Origin: an uncultured Acidobacteriota bacterium
GTDB lineage: Bacteria; Acidobacteriota; Vicinamibacteria; Vicinamibacterales; 2-12-FULL-66-21
NCBI GenBank assembly: GCA_963804795.1
Contig: CAWDRS010000011.1
Coordinates: 281,228 to 345,227, forward strand
Reading direction: 5' to 3'
DNA: 64,000 nt
Shown here: in pieces, positions 33,505 through 47,230 of the stretch
How the letters are laid out: each line of letters starts with the position of its first letter
How positions within the stretch are numbered: position 1 is the stretch's first letter
Notes under the pieces: generated by a model
The model's input: only the letters and a program-made list of their open reading frames with translations
What the model was told of the DNA's origin: nothing
The model's database searches: none
Translations under genes and position numbers: made by a program

Positions 33505-33509
33505 TATTA

Positions 33510-33880
33510 AACCGGGGGGCTTCGCCCCGCCGGACCCCCCAGCGCCGTCGCTCGCGGGGCCCCGTCGCCCCGCTCCGCTCCGGCGGGCGCGCCGTCGGCG
33601 CGCCTGGTTTAGTCATTACACCGGGGGCTTCGCTCCGCCGGCCCCCCAGCGCCGGCGCTCGCGGGGCCCCGTCGCCCCGCTCCGCTCCGGCGGGCGCGCC
33701 GTCGGCGCGCCTGGTTTAGTCATTACACCGGGGGCTTCGCTCCGCCGGACCCCCCAGCGCCGGCGCTCGCGGGGCCCCGTCGCCCCGCTCCCCTCCCGCC
33801 TTCGCTAAAGCTCCGGCGGGCCGCCGTAGCCTTGGCGGAGGCTGGCCGGCGGGCGCGCCGTTGGCGCGCCTGGTTTAAGT
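33510..33880 (+). repeat. Repeat family C, three tandem ~108-bp units (the third carries a ~55-bp insertion)
   Basis: Units start near 33510, 33618 and 33726: ACCGGGGGGCTTCGCCCCGCCGGACCCCCCAGCGCCGTCGCTCGCGGGGCCCCGTCGCCCCGCTCCGCTCCGGCGGGCGCGCCGTCGGCGCGCCTGGTTTAGTCATTAC. Confidence 0.9.
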
Positions 33881-41301: not shown

Positions 41302-44300
41302 CTATCGCTGCTGCGAGGTCGTCGATCGCTTGCCCAACTCGGCCTTCAGTACCTCGACTGCCTTCTCGATCTGCGCGTCCCGTTTCTGCGCGAAGTCCGC
41401 CGGCGTGTTGTCGACCAGCACGTCCGGCGGCACGCCGTAGTTCTCCATGTTCTCGCCGGTCACGGTCCAGACGCCGCTCCCGGGCGTGCGGATCGTCGAG
41501 CCGTCGAGCAGCGTGTACGACCCCGTGCCGATGACGGCGCCCATCGTCGGCACCCCGACGACCTTGCCGAGCCCGAGCGCCTTGAAGCCGGCCGGGAACA
41601 TCTCGGCGTCGGAGGCGGAGCGCTCGTTCTGCATCACGACCATCGGTCCGTAGAAGTTCTGAGGCCGAGGCTGTTGGAAGCCCGCGTCACGACCGACGGT
41701 GTATTGGTACTGCCTGCCCGCGAGTATGCCGAGCAGTTCCTGGTCGATGCCGCCACCGCCGTTGAACCGCTGATCGATGACGAGCGCTTTCTTCGTCCGG
41801 TTCGCCGCCAGGTCGAGCTGGAACTGCCGCAGCGACGGTGCGTCCATCGCGCGGATGTGCAGGTAACCGATATCGCCGTTACCGAGCTTTGCCACGATGT
41901 CGCGGCGATCGCTGACCCATTTCGCGTACTGGAGGTCGGTGAACGCGCTGCCGGCGACGGGAGCGATCGTCACCTCCCAGGCGCCCTCGCGGACCGGCTT
42001 GTCGTTGACCATGAAGTGGAACTTGCTGCCGGCCGCGAGGGTGAAGTACTGCCAATAGTTCTCGCCGGCCTTCAGGTCGTGGCCGTCCACGGCCACGAGG
42101 TAGTCGCCTGCCTTGATCTTCAGGTAGTCGTGATCCGCGGGGCCGTCCTTGTAGATGTGGCCGACCCTGTAGAAACCTGACGCGTCCGTCGCGACGTCGA
42201 AGCCTGGATGCCTCGTCTGCACGGTGCGCTCGGTGGTGCTCGGACGGCCGCTGACCCCGGTGTGCGAGGCGTTGAGCTGACCGATCATCATCATCATGAC
42301 GGTGTGCAGCTCCTCTTCGTCGACGAGATAATCGAGGAGCCCTTCGTAGGTCTTCTTCGCCGCCGTCCAGTCCGTCCCGTGCATCCTGGCGTCGTAGAAG
42401 CGGTTCTTCATGATGCGCCAGCCTTCGTTGAAGACCTGCGACCGCAGCGCTTTGTGATCGATTTCCAGGTTGACGCTGTAGGTCACCTGCCTCGCCGTCG
42501 TGCTCGGCGTCGACAGATCCGACGGTTCGGCTGCACTGCCGCGGCCACCGCCACGACCGCCGCTGGCGCCGGCCGAGGCATTCTGTGCGGCCCCGGTGCC
42601 TGCCTGGTTGGGCAGAGCCGCCGCAAACAGATTGCCGCCCGACCCGAAATAGAGCGTGCGTCCGTCGCGCGCGAACACCATGTTTCCACCGCCGCCGAAT
42701 CCGCCGCCCGCCGCGCCGCCCCGGCCGCCGCGGCCCGCTCCGGCAGACGGCGGAGCCGACGGAACGCGAATGAGCTGACCGCTCTCGACGTTGATGATGT
42801 ACATCCCCGCCGTCGGATCGGCGGCTCCAGCAGCTCCGCGCCCTCCGCCGGCGCCACCCGACGACACCGTGAGGGCGACGGAATGCCCTTCGGGCGCGGC
42901 CGTCAGGCCGCCAATCGTCGTGCCGGGCACCGTGAGCCGCCGCGCGCGGCGCGGCATGCCGTTCCAATCGATGCGGACCTCGACCGGTTGTGCCCCTGCG
43001 TTGCCCCTGCCAGTGTTCTGCCTGGCCGCCGCTTCCGCCGCGAGCCCCTGCGCCTCGTTGTCGATATCGCGGTTCATCGGGTCGCGATCCTGATCGCGCA
43101 GCGACAGCGTCCAGAGGGCCATCGTCGTGCTGATGCCACCCTGTGAGGCGATCCCGTTGTTCGCGCTCTCGACCGAGGTGAACACGATGTAGCGTCCGTC
43201 AGCGGTCCACGTGGCGTTGTTCTCGGCGTACAGAAGGCTGTCGTCCGAAATGTGGCGCTCCTCGCCCCCTGCGATCGGCACGATGTAGAGATGCGAGCGA
43301 AGCGTCCGGTCCTGCTTCGAGAGCGCGACCCACTTGCTGTCGGGTGAGACCGAGACCGACCCGATCCGCCCGAGCTCGCTGGACGAGACCACGGCTGTCT
43401 TACCGTCCGCGACGCTGTAGCTGTAAAGCTTCCGATCCGCCGCCGTGTAGAGGAGGGCTTTCGAGTCCGGTGTCCAGACGAGTGCCCCTTTCTCGTTGTC
43501 GAGGTCGGTGATCTTCTTGGGATTCGTCCCTTCCGGATCCGAGACCCACACCTCGTCGCGGCCCGACCGATCCGACACGAAGGCGATGTACTTGCCGTCG
43601 AACGACCACTTCGGCGATTCGTTGCGCGAGGCCATCTTGTCGGGCGCCACGCGCGTGATGTCGCCGCGGTCGGTGGCGATCGTCAGAATCTGACCTCGCG
43701 CGGAGATGACCGCCCGCCGGCCGGATGGAGAAATGTCGAACGAGCTCACCTCGCTCGTCACGGGCTCGACGTCGATTTCGTTCTCCTTCTCGTCGGTGGC
43801 GATGTCCAGCTTGATCTCGCTCGTCCTGCCCGAGGGCACATCGAGCTTCCAGATACCGAAGTTGTCTTCGTACACGATGACCTTGCCGTCGCTCGACATC
43901 GACGGCCAGAACAGGCTGCCGTCCGTGTGCTTGGTCACCTGTACTGGTTGGCCGCCCTTCGCCGGAACCTTGTAGATGTTGTTGACGCTCTTCCGGACCT
44001 CCGTGCTGCCCGGCTTCACGCTCTTGTCGTTCGGCAGGGGATCGGCCACGAAGTAGATCGCATCGTCTGCACCCCACATCGGCCAGTACCGGTTGTAGCG
44101 TTCGTCGCCGAGAATTCTGGTGTAGGTCTTTCCGGCGAGGTCGCCGATCCACAGATCCGCGGCGTAGCTGCCGCGATAGTGCTGCCGGGACCAGACAGCG
44201 GGATGTCGATTGAAGACCAGCGACTTGCCGTCAGGAGAAAAATTGCCCCAGTAGCCCCAATCGACAGGCAGCGGCTTCTCCTGCCCGCCGGTGACGGCGA

Positions 44301-44736
44301 TCTGATAGAGGGTTGCGACGGTTGGAAACGCCCCGTCGCCCCGCGCGGCGCGGAAGATCACGCTCTGTGAATCACGCGTCCACGAGACGACGTCGTCGTT
44401 GCCCGTGTGGTAGGTGAGCCGGCGTGGCACGCCGCCCGTCGCCGACACGATGAACACATCGTAGTTGCCGTAACGATTCGACGAGAACGCGATCCAGCGG
44501 CCATCCGGCGAGAACCGCGGATACACGTCGCGCGCGCGATTGTCCGTGAGGCGGTGAGCGTTCGAGCCATCTTCCGACGCGGTCCAGATGTCGCCGAGGT
44601 AGCTGAAGGCGATGGTGCCTGCCCGGTAGTCCGGATGCCGTGCCAGCCGGACCGGTGCAGCCCGCATGGACGCTGCACCCGACGTCAGGATCAACAGACC
44701 GGTAAGGAGCGCTCCACGGGACATCGTGCGAACCAT
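41302..44736 (-). CDS. Tricorn-protease-like S41 peptidase (TolB-type propellers + PDZ + S41 core) with Gly/Arg-rich insertions
   Basis: ORF 41302..44757(-). The first listed codon is TTG and the ATG at 44736 has GGAGG 7 nt upstream. Repeated PRFSPDGRWIAFSS-type blades are followed by a C-terminal S41 domain (..GGGGIDQELLGIL.., ..SASDAEMFP..). Confidence 0.85.
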   Translation of the reverse strand: MVRTMSRGALLTGLLILTSGAASMRAAPVRLARHPDYRAGTIAFSYLGDIWTASEDGSNAHRLTDNRARDVYPRFSPDGRWIAFSSNRYGNYDVFIVSATGGVPRRLTYHTGNDDVVSWTRDSQSVIFRAARGDGAFPTVATLYQIAVTGGQEKPLPVDWGYWGNFSPDGKSLVFNRHPAVWSRQHYRGSYAADLWIGDLAGKTYTRILGDERYNRYWPMWGADDAIYFVADPLPNDKSVKPGSTEVRKSVNNIYKVPAKGGQPVQVTKHTDGSLFWPSMSSDGKVIVYEDNFGIWKLDVPSGRTSEIKLDIATDEKENEIDVEPVTSEVSSFDISPSGRRAVISARGQILTIATDRGDITRVAPDKMASRNESPKWSFDGKYIAFVSDRSGRDEVWVSDPEGTNPKKITDLDNEKGALVWTPDSKALLYTAADRKLYSYSVADGKTAVVSSSELGRIGSVSVSPDSKWVALSKQDRTLRSHLYIVPIAGGEERHISDDSLLYAENNATWTADGRYIVFTSVESANNGIASQGGISTTMALWTLSLRDQDRDPMNRDIDNEAQGLAAEAAARQNTGRGNAGAQPVEVRIDWNGMPRRARRLTVPGTTIGGLTAAPEGHSVALTVSSGGAGGGRGAAGAADPTAGMYIINVESGQLIRVPSAPPSAGAGRGGRGGAAGGGFGGGGNMVFARDGRTLYFGSGGNLFAAALPNQAGTGAAQNASAGASGGRGGGRGSAAEPSDLSTPSTTARQVTYSVNLEIDHKALRSQVFNEGWRIMKNRFYDARMHGTDWTAAKKTYEGLLDYLVDEEELHTVMMMMIGQLNASHTGVSGRPSTTERTVQTRHPGFDVATDASGFYRVGHIYKDGPADHDYLKIKAGDYLVAVDGHDLKAGENYWQYFTLAAGSKFHFMVNDKPVREGAWEVTIAPVAGSAFTDLQYAKWVSDRRDIVAKLGNGDIGYLHIRAMDAPSLRQFQLDLAANRTKKALVIDQRFNGGGGIDQELLGILAGRQYQYTVGRDAGFQQPRPQNFYGPMVVMQNERSASDAEMFPAGFKALGLGKVVGVPTMGAVIGTGSYTLLDGSTIRTPGSGVWTVTGENMENYGVPPDVLVDNTPADFAQKRDAQIEKAVEVLKAELGKRSTTSQQR

Positions 44737-44763
44737 AGCCATGCCTCCAAATATCAAATATCA

Positions 44764-45458
44764 ACCGGGGGGCTTCGCCCCGCCGGACCCCCCATCGCCG
44801 TCGCTCGCAGGGACCCCAAAGCCCCGCTCCGCTCCGGCGGGGCGCGCCTGCCGCGCGCCTGGATCCCCACCGGGGGCTTCGCCCCGCCGGACCCCCCATC
44901 GCCGTCGCTCGCAGGGACCCCAAAGCCCCGCTCCGCTCCGGCGGGGCGCGCCTGCCGCGCGCCTGGATCCCATCGGGGGGCTTCCCTCCGCCGAAGCGCC
45001 TCCGGCGCGAAGGCGGCCGGACCCCCCATCGCCGTCGCTCGCATCCTTCGAGAGCTTGTGGCTTCCGGCTTTAGCCGGAAGAACGCCGCACGCCTTGCCT
45101 TCCACCTAAAGGTGGAAGCCACACGAATCGTTTCCGAGGGGCTTCTGGCGCGAAGGCGGCCGGACCCCCCATCGCCGTCGCTCGCATCCTTCGAGAGCTT
45201 GTGGCTTCCGGCTTTAGCCGGAAGAACGCCGCACGCCTTGCCTTCCACCTGAAGGTGGAAGCCACACGAATCGTTTCCGAGGGGCTTCTGGCGCGAAGGC
45301 GGCCGGACCCCCATCGCCGTCGCTCGCATCCTTCGAGAGCTTGTGGCTTCCGGCTTTAGCCGGAAGGGCGCCGCGGGCCTTGCCTTCCACCTGAAGGTGG
45401 AAGCCACAAAAATCGTTTCACAGCCTCGAAGCGCCTCCGGCGCGAAGGCGGCCGGGGG
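44764..45458. repeat. Composite tandem array: two family-C units (~105 bp) followed by about 3.2 units of a ~122-bp C/B hybrid repeat
   Basis: C units start at 44764 and 44869. Hybrid units (GCGCCTCCGGCGCGAAGGCGGCCGGACCCCCCATCGCCGTCGCTCGCATCCTTCGAGAGCTTGTGGCTTCCGGCTTTAGCCGGAAG..CCTTCCACCTAAAGGTGGAAGCCACACGAATCG) start near 44996, 45141 and 45263, with a partial unit at 45431. Confidence 0.9.
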
Positions 45459-45460
45459 CA

Positions 45461-47230
45461 CTACCGCTGCCGGCGGGTCAACCGATCCACGATCTCGGCG
45501 GCCGAAAGCTTGCGCCGCTGAACCTCGACTCCGGACAGTCTGAAGCGATCGCCCGCGCCGTGAATCAGGACGCGGCCTGCTGCCATCGTCGCTGCGGTCG
45601 GGAGGTCCCCAGCGCGGCGCAGCCCGGGAATGTACAAACGGTCGAGGAACATCCCATCGCTCCCCGTATCGAAGTCACCGACGTCGAGAATCGCCAGCGA
45701 GAGCGGCGCCACGGCGCTGGCCAGCACGCCCGCCAGCGCCTCATCGCCGTCCGCGATGAGAATCGCGCCGGGCGACTCCCGAGCGGCGGTCACGATGTCC
45801 GCCACGCGCTGACTGGCGGCTGTGCGATTGTAGGTCTCGAAATGCCTGATCTTCCCGGCGGCGACAAGGTCAGCGGTCGTGAACCGGATTCGTTTGGCGA
45901 CGAACCGTGCCCGCTTCAGACGACGCTCGAGATCGGCATCGGCGGCGGTGAGAAGGACCGTCCGGGTGCCTGCGTTCGGCGCCGGTAGCGCCGCTTCCGA
46001 GGCGAACCCGAGAACATGCCGGAGAGCGGATTCCACATCCGACCGATGCCCCGACGTCAACTGGTGCTGGGCTGCGGCAATCCAGTTGTCGGTCAGCTGC
46101 GCGGCGGTGACGGCGTTCGCGGGCAGCGGGCGCTGGTGGAACACGAGAAGGTCCGGCAAGGGATCGGGATCGAACGACTTTTCGGGCCGCTTCACGTCGG
46201 CCGGCGCCTGCTGGAGCCAGCGCGCCATCCAGGCGTACACAGCCTCGCGGCTGTCGCGATTGTAGTTGTGCGGCGCTTCGAACTGCACGGCGTGCACGCG
46301 GGACGGCTCACCCAGGAGATCGTAGATCTTCCTGATGGCCGGATACTCCGCCTGCATCGTCTCCCGGGTCCAGTCACCAGTCGCTGACACCATGAGCAAC
46401 GGGCGTGGCGCGATGGTCGCGGCGATCTCGACGTTCGTGGTATCCAGCCGCAGCCCGGGAAGGTTCTCGCAGAGGCACCCGCCCTGCATCAGTAACGAGA
46501 TCATGTTCACCGGAGCGGCAACCCGCACGCGGCTGTCGACGGCCGTCACGAGGAAGGTCTGCGTCCCGCCGCCGGAGGCCCCGGTCGCGCCGATCGCGTC
46601 GCGTTTCACGTACGGCAGGGTCTCGAGGAAGTCGAGAGATCGAATGCTGTTCCACAGTTGGAGCCCGCCGAGGCTGAGACTCCAGAGCCTCTCGCGCCGC
46701 CCGTCGAACGTATGAGTCAGCTGACGGCTGTCGTTGTAGCCAATCGCGTCGTAGGTGAAGACCACGAAGCCCTGGCGCGCCAGGTTGATGGCTCGACCGG
46801 GGATCGACGCGGTCGTCGTGTTTTCCAGGCGCCCGTAAGTCCAGTGCCCGTGTGGTGACAGGATCGCCGGGAATGGACCGTCGCCGATTGGTCGATACAG
46901 ATTCCCGGTGACGAAGAACCCGGGGAGGCTCTCGAAGTACACCTTCGACACGCGATAGTCCGCGTGCGCGATCTCGCCGAAAATCACAGGCGCCAGCGGC
47001 GTCTTCTCGGGCATCGGCAGCAGGCCCGCCGACGCGAGGACGTGCTGGCGCAGGTAGTCGGCACGCTGCTGCCACACGGCCGGGGTCGTGATGGCGGGAG
47101 GGGCGAAACGATCGTCGAGCGTGCGGTACTGCGCCGCCGCCGCCAACACGAACGAGCACACCAGCGCGATCGTGAGCGCCGGTCTGGAGCGCAACGTGGT
47201 TCGAGCGGACATCAACCGCCTCCGATGCAT
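45461..47230 (-). CDS. Secreted alpha/beta hydrolase (acetyl-xylan-esterase-like N-domain) with a C-terminal extension of unknown function
   Basis: 589 aa with a signal peptide and the nucleophile elbow GATGASGGG. The ~200-aa C-terminal region has no motif I recognise. Confidence 0.7.
   Translation of the reverse strand: MHRRRLMSARTTLRSRPALTIALVCSFVLAAAAQYRTLDDRFAPPAITTPAVWQQRADYLRQHVLASAGLLPMPEKTPLAPVIFGEIAHADYRVSKVYFESLPGFFVTGNLYRPIGDGPFPAILSPHGHWTYGRLENTTTASIPGRAINLARQGFVVFTYDAIGYNDSRQLTHTFDGRRERLWSLSLGGLQLWNSIRSLDFLETLPYVKRDAIGATGASGGGTQTFLVTAVDSRVRVAAPVNMISLLMQGGCLCENLPGLRLDTTNVEIAATIAPRPLLMVSATGDWTRETMQAEYPAIRKIYDLLGEPSRVHAVQFEAPHNYNRDSREAVYAWMARWLQQAPADVKRPEKSFDPDPLPDLLVFHQRPLPANAVTAAQLTDNWIAAAQHQLTSGHRSDVESALRHVLGFASEAALPAPNAGTRTVLLTAADADLERRLKRARFVAKRIRFTTADLVAAGKIRHFETYNRTAASQRVADIVTAARESPGAILIADGDEALAGVLASAVAPLSLAILDVGDFDTGSDGMFLDRLYIPGLRRAGDLPTAATMAAGRVLIHGAGDRFRLSGVEVQRRKLSAAEIVDRLTRRQR

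Follow-up and report, generated by a model that had tools for sequence, protein, structure and literature searches.

A composite repeat cluster of the REP/REPIN-BIME kind in the esterase-tricorn spacer of an uncultured acidobacterium

What is the repetitive DNA that fills the 718-bp spacer between an esterase-like gene and the tricorn-like protease gene downstream of it in an uncultured Vicinamibacterales acidobacterium, and through which events did it come to lie there? The spacer is part of the window, by which we mean the whole 64,000-nucleotide stretch of DNA that was analyzed, and its repeats occupy positions 44765-45456. We propose that it is probably a mosaic of intergenic, non-coding repeats that corresponds, in an acidobacterium, to a BIME (bacterial interspersed mosaic element) or to an ordered REPIN cluster, and that it was built by insertion followed by amplification in situ. 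The argument rests on the anatomy of the repeat units, on the genome-wide distribution of the families from which they are assembled, and on the comparison with a relative in which the same spacer is empty.

Architecture of the array

Tandem Repeats Finder resolves two adjacent blocks: 44762-44993, with a period of 104 (2.2 copies, 94% matches, score 420), and 45004-45419, with a period of 143 (2.9 copies, 97% matches, score 776). A second repeat search agrees, returning two copies of the 104-nt family and three of the 143-nt family (100/97/82% ungapped), together with a fourth, partial head at 45427-45472. These unit counts, all taken from one long-read-style MAG assembly, bear out the two family-C units of ~105 bp that a first-pass annotation had placed at 44764 and 44869, but they correct its hybrid unit of ~122 bp: the actual period is 143 bp, and 122 is the distance between equivalent hairpins. 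Its figure of 3.2 hybrid copies is right only if the terminal 30-nt remnant is counted; otherwise there are three. The coordinates of all features are collected in Table 1.

Table 1. Coordinates of the repeat units and flanking features in the window
Feature	Position	Strand	Description
Tricorn-like protease gene (downstream gene)	41302..44742	-	PD40 beta-propeller repeats, Tricorn_C1, Peptidase_S41
Shine-Dalgarno GGAGG of the tricorn-like gene	44744..44748	-	Start codon on one side, first C head hairpin on the other
Family-C unit C1, 104 nt	44765..44868	+	Head hairpin CCGGGGGGCTTCGCCCCGCCGG facing the tricorn start, 17-23 nt off
Family-C unit C2, 104 nt	44869..44972	+	97% identity to C1
Hybrid unit H1, 162 nt	44973..45134	+	C head, C left body, linker, flanked REPIN B
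REPIN B copy 1 (in H1)	45058..45122	no strand	GTGGCTTCCGGCTTTAGCCGGAAG, 17-nt spacer, CTTCCACCTAAAGGTGGAAGCCAC; two inverted GTGG-tagged REPs
Hybrid unit H2, 143 nt	45135..45277	+	Head variant CGAGGGGCTTCTGGCGCGAAGGCGG; REPIN B copy 2 at 45201-45265
Hybrid unit H3, 143 nt + 6-nt tail	45278..45426	+	REPIN B copy 3 at 45343-45407
Terminal module-M remnant, 30 nt	45427..45456	+	CGAAGCGCCTCCGGCGCGAAGGCGGCCGG; ends 4 nt before the esterase stop codon
Esterase-like gene, 589 aa (upstream gene)	45461..47230	-	Weak GCE_fung (glucuronyl esterase) match; stop codon 45461-45463

The array fills the spacer, as had been stated at the outset: on one side its repeats reach the esterase stop codon, and on the other they face a tricorn-like gene whose first in-frame ATG is at 44742 and whose likely start is the ATG at 44736, 7 nt past GGAGG. 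Relative to the flanking genes, unit C1 is antisense, like most of family C. Every hybrid unit combines a C head and left body, a remnant of a third module (M), and a complete family-B element. Each opens like a C element (CGGGGGGCTTC...), continues for 14-33 nt in module M (~58 nt; ...GCCGAAGCGCCTCCGGCGCGAAGGCGG), and enters the C left body, CCGGACCCCCCATCGCCGTCGCTCGCA, where C breaks off and a complete B element follows between short flanks of its own: CGAGAGCT-TGTGGCTTCC...GGAAGCCACA-CGAATCGTTT. None of the hybrid units has the right half of C. The C-like string and the family-B double hairpin that the first-pass annotation had singled out are both present in every 143-bp unit.

In H1, the head contains a 26-nt remnant of the nested hairpin module M and the C left body ends ...CGCTCGCA. 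The terminal M remnant is identical to the M copy in the H1 head. By BLAST, the three 143/162-nt units are 95-97% identical to H2, in keeping with the match percentage from Tandem Repeats Finder. Unit alignment shows that H1 and H2 differ by a 19-nt indel, four head substitutions and one loop substitution, and that H3 departs from H2 in six substitutions and, by 1 nt, in the length of a homopolymer. Four positions separate the inner heads, those of H2 and H3, from the outer M remnants, and the H2-type head is also present as a variant of C in G002, a genome of the same genus.

These differences bear on whether the copy number is genuine. Had the assembler or polisher inflated the tandem copies, there would be fewer units in the true spacer, perhaps a single C and a single hybrid, and some of the inter-unit differences are indeed homopolymer lengths, the single-base cases of which are not to be relied on. 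Stutter would not, however, create the substitutions and the 19-nt indel that distinguish H1, H2 and H3 at defined places. Moreover, the array is only 700 bp, far under long-read length, in an assembly with contigs of up to 0.98 Mb, and dozens of similar arrays are found here and in other genomes, including G002. We regard such an artefact as very unlikely.

We also considered whether the repeats encode a protein or form a CRISPR-like array. They are regularly spaced, and a 235-aa open frame on the - strand (44754..45461) spans them. However, the 104- and 143-nt units are not multiples of 3, so that successive copies fall in different frames, and the open frame is a GC artefact of a kind expected by chance at 66% GC. 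A CRISPR is rejected on the same ground that the first-pass annotation had given, namely that there are no unique spacers: the units abut, and the sequence between hairpins is itself repeated. Both B and C are, in addition, dispersed genome-wide in intergenic DNA, and we attach practically no weight to a coding or CRISPR-like reading. The array is real and non-coding.

The dispersed families that compose the array

The REP of family B consists of GTGG followed by CTTCCGGCT-TT-AGCCGGAAG, a palindrome with a 9-bp stem, and has an inverted partner; the inverted REPs form doublets with a modal gap of 17-19 nt. Folded as DNA, the REPIN forms one long hairpin, with energies of -21.9 and -23.4 kcal/mol and z-scores of -4.8 and -5.3 for the two strands. 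An nhmmer census places 230 family-B loci in the 7.14-Mb genome, 121 of which are at least 60 nt long and hence of doublet length, and a pattern search finds 328 single B REP motifs. The loci are depleted in coding DNA, with a mean coding overlap of 18% against the 77% of the genome that a crude GC3-based gene caller assigns to genes. They lie in convergent spacers in 53 cases and in divergent ones in 13, and show no orientation bias.

The genome also contains a cognate enzyme. A gene at C7:153991-154485, on another contig than the array, matches the NCBIfam model of REP-associated tyrosine transposases (NF047646) with 93.7 bits against a cut-off of 80, as well as PF01797; it is a Y1 HUH gene with HVH and YIIANP motifs, and it is single-copy. 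Its surroundings (C7:153369-154560) hold five tandem B REPINs upstream, with a period of ~120 bp, and one B REP downstream; the open frame of the RAYT runs through the latter. An ortholog in another genus (G006), 58% identical, is likewise flanked by B-like REPs. In several B-bearing relatives a close RAYT was not found, which may reflect MAG incompleteness and which weakens the argument from co-occurrence of B and RAYT. Structure, distribution and association with this gene identify family B as a REP/REPIN family, and the gene as its cognate RAYT.

A second Y1/HUH gene, at C15:349300-350560, has a C-terminal HTH-like tail, and the pairs that border the gene at each end belong to a third, unrelated palindrome family (GGGGTCAGGTCTTGTAC...GTACAAGACCTGACCCC), not to C. 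This arrangement suggests a second system of the REP-RAYT type.

Family C is of a different nature. Its core of ~96 nt is highly conserved and carries GC hairpins at both ends, and the nhmmer census of the genome yields 285 copies in about 178 clusters. In more than 40 of these clusters the copies stand in tandem, with as many as 12 near-identical units per array and periods of 100-170 bp; often the units also take in nested modules or 5-70 nt of flank specific to the locus, which makes the in-situ amplification of an element together with neighboring DNA routine in this genome. Module M is one such nested element: a hairpin of ~58 nt (CCGCCTCCGCYAAGGCTACGGCG...GCCGAAGCGCCTSCGGCGCGAAGGCGG) with about 28 genome copies by BLAST, normally found at two defined positions in C, the head or the mid hairpin, where it gives rise to a long form of C. 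Examples of M are C8:634832-634883, C22:221608-221659 and, in the window, 44985-45020. Other C copies have a second nested module, CCGGGGTCCCCGGCGCGCGTGTTTTGCGCGCTGGGGTGGAGG, before the head hairpin, and a short form consists of the tail and head hairpins only. The first-pass annotation had recognized two dispersed families in the array, and these stand; it had missed the REP/REPIN identity of B, the cognate RAYT, and the third module, M.

Across the bacterial family, C occurs at 90-98% identity in 20 of 24 genera and is absent from two of three same-genus genomes. When hairpin variants are counted directly, compensatory changes are seen to preserve pairing in the head hairpin; a consensus fold of 145 C copies with RNAalifold was of no use, since the alignment suffers from homopolymer indels. 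YTAG/YTAR motifs border many copies: many solo ones have YTAG at the tail and CTAG, CTAA, TTAG or TTAA at the head. Convincing terminal inverted repeats of C were not found, nor was a mobilizing enzyme, the search for which extended to partial and head-only copies that might contain a transposase between split ends. Three filled/empty comparisons in the ribosomal-protein operon, one with ATG on both sides and two with the insertion upstream of the Shine-Dalgarno (SD) sequence, gave no consistent boundary that would mark a target-site duplication. The searched literature yielded no description of this family.

Gain of the array and resemblance to known clusters

Of the 381 repeat clusters in the genome, the array locus is the only one where 120 bp or less separate B from C, and the full-length 143-nt unit is likewise confined to that locus in this genome and 40 relatives. 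The flank downstream of the esterase was examined in eight relatives with an ortholog of it, and only the same-genus G002 keeps the esterase-tricorn gene pair. There, the tricorn-like protein has 87% amino acid identity and the spacer measures 38 bp and is free of repeats. The ~690 bp of repeats are accordingly best read as a lineage-specific gain, and the repeat-free spacer argues for a lineage-specific insertion that was then amplified in situ; the empty site places the gain in this lineage but neither dates nor separates the events. The match to the G002 esterase ortholog (L017, G002:C1:1265018-1266770) is split into two pieces that overlap, over residues 8-378 and 376-589, a sign of a frameshift or of a long-read base error in the G002 MAG.

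No second assembly of the locus came up in metagenome scans with the unique C/B junction and with the conserved esterase 3' pattern. A scan of genome contigs recovered only G002 as a relative, and an exact-protein look-up of the esterase returned no match.

Family-C insertions differ between close relatives at other loci too, as the ribosomal-protein operon illustrates. In the present genome (G000), C stands before rplW and rplR as single copies and before rpmJ as 12, the last forming a 1.2-kb array directly upstream of rpmJ (L36) at C11:153254-154479, outside the window. G002 has no C at rplW, rplR or rpmJ, although its SecY is 99% identical, and G014 carries C before rplN instead. These differences show that C insertions are lineage-specific at these sites as well. 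At the rplF-rplR spacer (C11 about 159334-159460), ATG flanks C on both sides where the empty site of G002 has a single ATG; the upstream ATG makes an ATG-TAA start-stop, and the downstream one starts rplR.

Based on these observations, we infer the following order of events. The ancestral esterase-tricorn spacer would have been a few tens of bp long. A C element may first have entered the spacer directly ahead of the ribosome-binding site of the tricorn-like gene, in its usual orientation and with the head hairpin toward that site, and would then have been duplicated in tandem. One C unit would have carried or acquired the small nested hairpin module M, and a family-B REPIN, which the single-copy RAYT of the genome probably mobilized in the form of a single-stranded hairpin, would have landed in that unit after ...CGCTCGCA. 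Finally, the composite of C head, C left body and REPIN would have been amplified in situ to three copies, through unequal recombination or replication slippage, and the copies would subsequently have diverged.

The first-pass annotation had taken the array as evidence that the repeat families recombine and amplify locally. Local amplification of two dispersed families is upheld, while recombination is one route among others: a history in which a REPIN entered a C unit that was later duplicated in tandem fits at least as well. The simple insert-then-duplicate history is nevertheless incomplete, since the right half of C has been lost and the inner heads do not match the outer M remnants, and extra steps must be supposed. 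With the H2-type head occurring in G002 as well, a variant formed beforehand may have been involved instead of a deletion at the locus.

Clusters of this kind are already well known from Pseudomonas and E. coli. In P. fluorescens SBW25, REPINs and their flanks form tandem repeats exceeding 700 bp, and REPIN clusters lie beside RAYTs (Bertels & Rainey 2011, PMC3116915); in the GTAG-tagged REP super-family, REP clusters are reiterated with flanking DNA (Di Nocera et al. 2013, PMC3733652). These published descriptions match the architecture of the present array. It departs from the ordered REPIN clusters of SBW25 in three respects: (i) the tag is GTGG rather than GTAG, (ii) the co-amplified flank is a fragment of another dispersed family, C, and (iii) the host is an uncultured Vicinamibacterales acidobacterium. 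With the GTAG super-family, family B shares the terminal tetranucleotide tag on a 6-13-bp stem, the dimers with outward tags and the clusters reiterated with flank; it is not described in that survey, which does report a GTGG variant of the tag for Opitutus terrae and lists acidobacterial Y1 transposases that are TIR-associated (TIRYT), not REP-associated (PMC3733652).

The array likewise resembles the BIMEs of E. coli and other enterobacteria, which are head-to-tail mosaics of REP palindromes and other short conserved motifs that occupy intergenic spacers, often those of co-directional genes, but its motif set is another one, its units are much longer (104-162 nt), and part of it belongs to a non-REP family. 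Binding of IHF or DNA gyrase is a feature of BIME-1 and BIME-2 in E. coli. Pneumococcal BOX and Neisseria Correia elements are modular non-autonomous repeats, and family C resembles them as a multi-hairpin element of ~100 nt that is gene-adjacent and probably co-transcribed, has short, standard and long modular forms, and reaches hundreds of copies. In contrast to BOX and Correia elements, C has no clear TIRs or identified transposase, forms long tandem arrays and prefers sites 5-25 nt before start codons.

The array is, then, a real and well-resolved but ordinary composite repeat cluster of the REP/REPIN-BIME kind in an unusual host. REPIN-RAYT systems have been characterized mostly in Proteobacteria, and the locus documents a complete one in an uncultured soil acidobacterium, comprising GTGG REPs, one RAYT next to its REPIN cluster, and tandem clusters in which flanking DNA is included. 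It also provides a clean comparison of a filled with an empty site, in which an operon spacer has grown from 38 bp to 718 bp. For long-read MAGs, arrays of this type are a hazard with respect to length polymorphism and assembly, and they raise the apparent amount of "non-coding" DNA.

Family C before start codons and the question of function

The head hairpin of C faces a gene start in 128 of the 178 clusters, at a median distance of 19.5 nt. The bias is independent of the gene caller: an ORF start lies within 30 nt of the C head in 78 of 132 clusters, compared with 7 of 110 at the tail. The distances at the head have two modes. An ATG or GTG falls within 12 nt of the hairpin in 37 clusters, with an SD-like 4-mer in only 4 of them, and in another 41 the start is 13-30 nt from the hairpin, with an SD-like 4-mer in 35. 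In co-directional spacers, C is antisense as written in 54 cases and sense in 13, which means that its reverse complement would be transcribed; in that orientation the hairpin CCGGCGGGGCGAAGCCCCCCGG closes the element, 5-25 nt ahead of start codons. Other genera likewise have C before rplN, acpP and mdh-like genes.

Two kinds of explanation may account for this bias: a target preference that acts together with purifying selection, or a genuine role in translation or in the stability of mRNA. Carried further, the second would make C, which accounts for half of the array, a transcribed, start-codon-proximal RNA/DNA cassette that spreads in Vicinamibacteraceae and is tolerated or selected for the translation-initiation or mRNA-5'-end context that its terminal hairpin provides. 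Proximity to starts, given as 5-9 nt before the ATG at the 37 loci without an SD, identity across at least 20 genera, the compensatory changes in the hairpin and the presence within ribosomal-protein operons all point in this direction, and we hold the cassette reading as a tentative, rather doubtful one. If true, the array would be a stuttered 5'-leader module hit by a REPIN. Family C is the more valuable by-product of this work: it is highly conserved, orientation-biased and situated directly before start codons across a whole bacterial family.

A role for the array itself is a separate matter. As a selected cis-regulatory RNA array, it would uncouple the two genes, by acting as a partial terminator, an RNase-processing site or an mRNA stabilizer, or else tune translation of the tricorn-like gene through the C head near its SD sequence. 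The orientation and position bias of C, its near-identity across genera and the compensatory variation in its head hairpin are in favor of such a role, as are the established roles of REPs in mRNA stability in E. coli. Against these stands the empty site in the only syntenic relative, by which the array is not required for the gene pair. Nor does the spacer have the expected signals: a scan for promoter-like sites found none, and the single terminator-like site, the C1 head hairpin followed by GTTGATATTT, is weak and compares with an average of 1.3 in shuffled sequence. The RNA fold of the whole spacer is only slightly more stable than that of shuffled sequence (z -2.6), and the sole hit in Rfam 15, searched with both strands, was isrG, whose 13.3 bits (E = 0.85) compare with a gathering score of 100. 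The hybrid units, moreover, do not have the right half of C. Taken together, the Rfam search, the promoter and terminator scan, the RNA fold and the open frame revealed nothing that requires the array to function, and we judge a selected regulatory role to be unlikely.

We consider it most likely that the array is selfish or neutral DNA. Its presence nonetheless puts about a dozen strong hairpins into a probably bicistronic transcript, where they could alter read-through or mRNA stability.

The orientation of C also correlates with GC skew. Among the few genes on the lagging strand, it follows gene direction in 7 cases as opposed to 4, which weakly suggests that the direction of the gene matters more than that of replication. 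Within the window, family C can be seen before start codons at 44765-44972 and at 33506-33796, for example, and in related genomes at loci L004-L008 and L035-L054.
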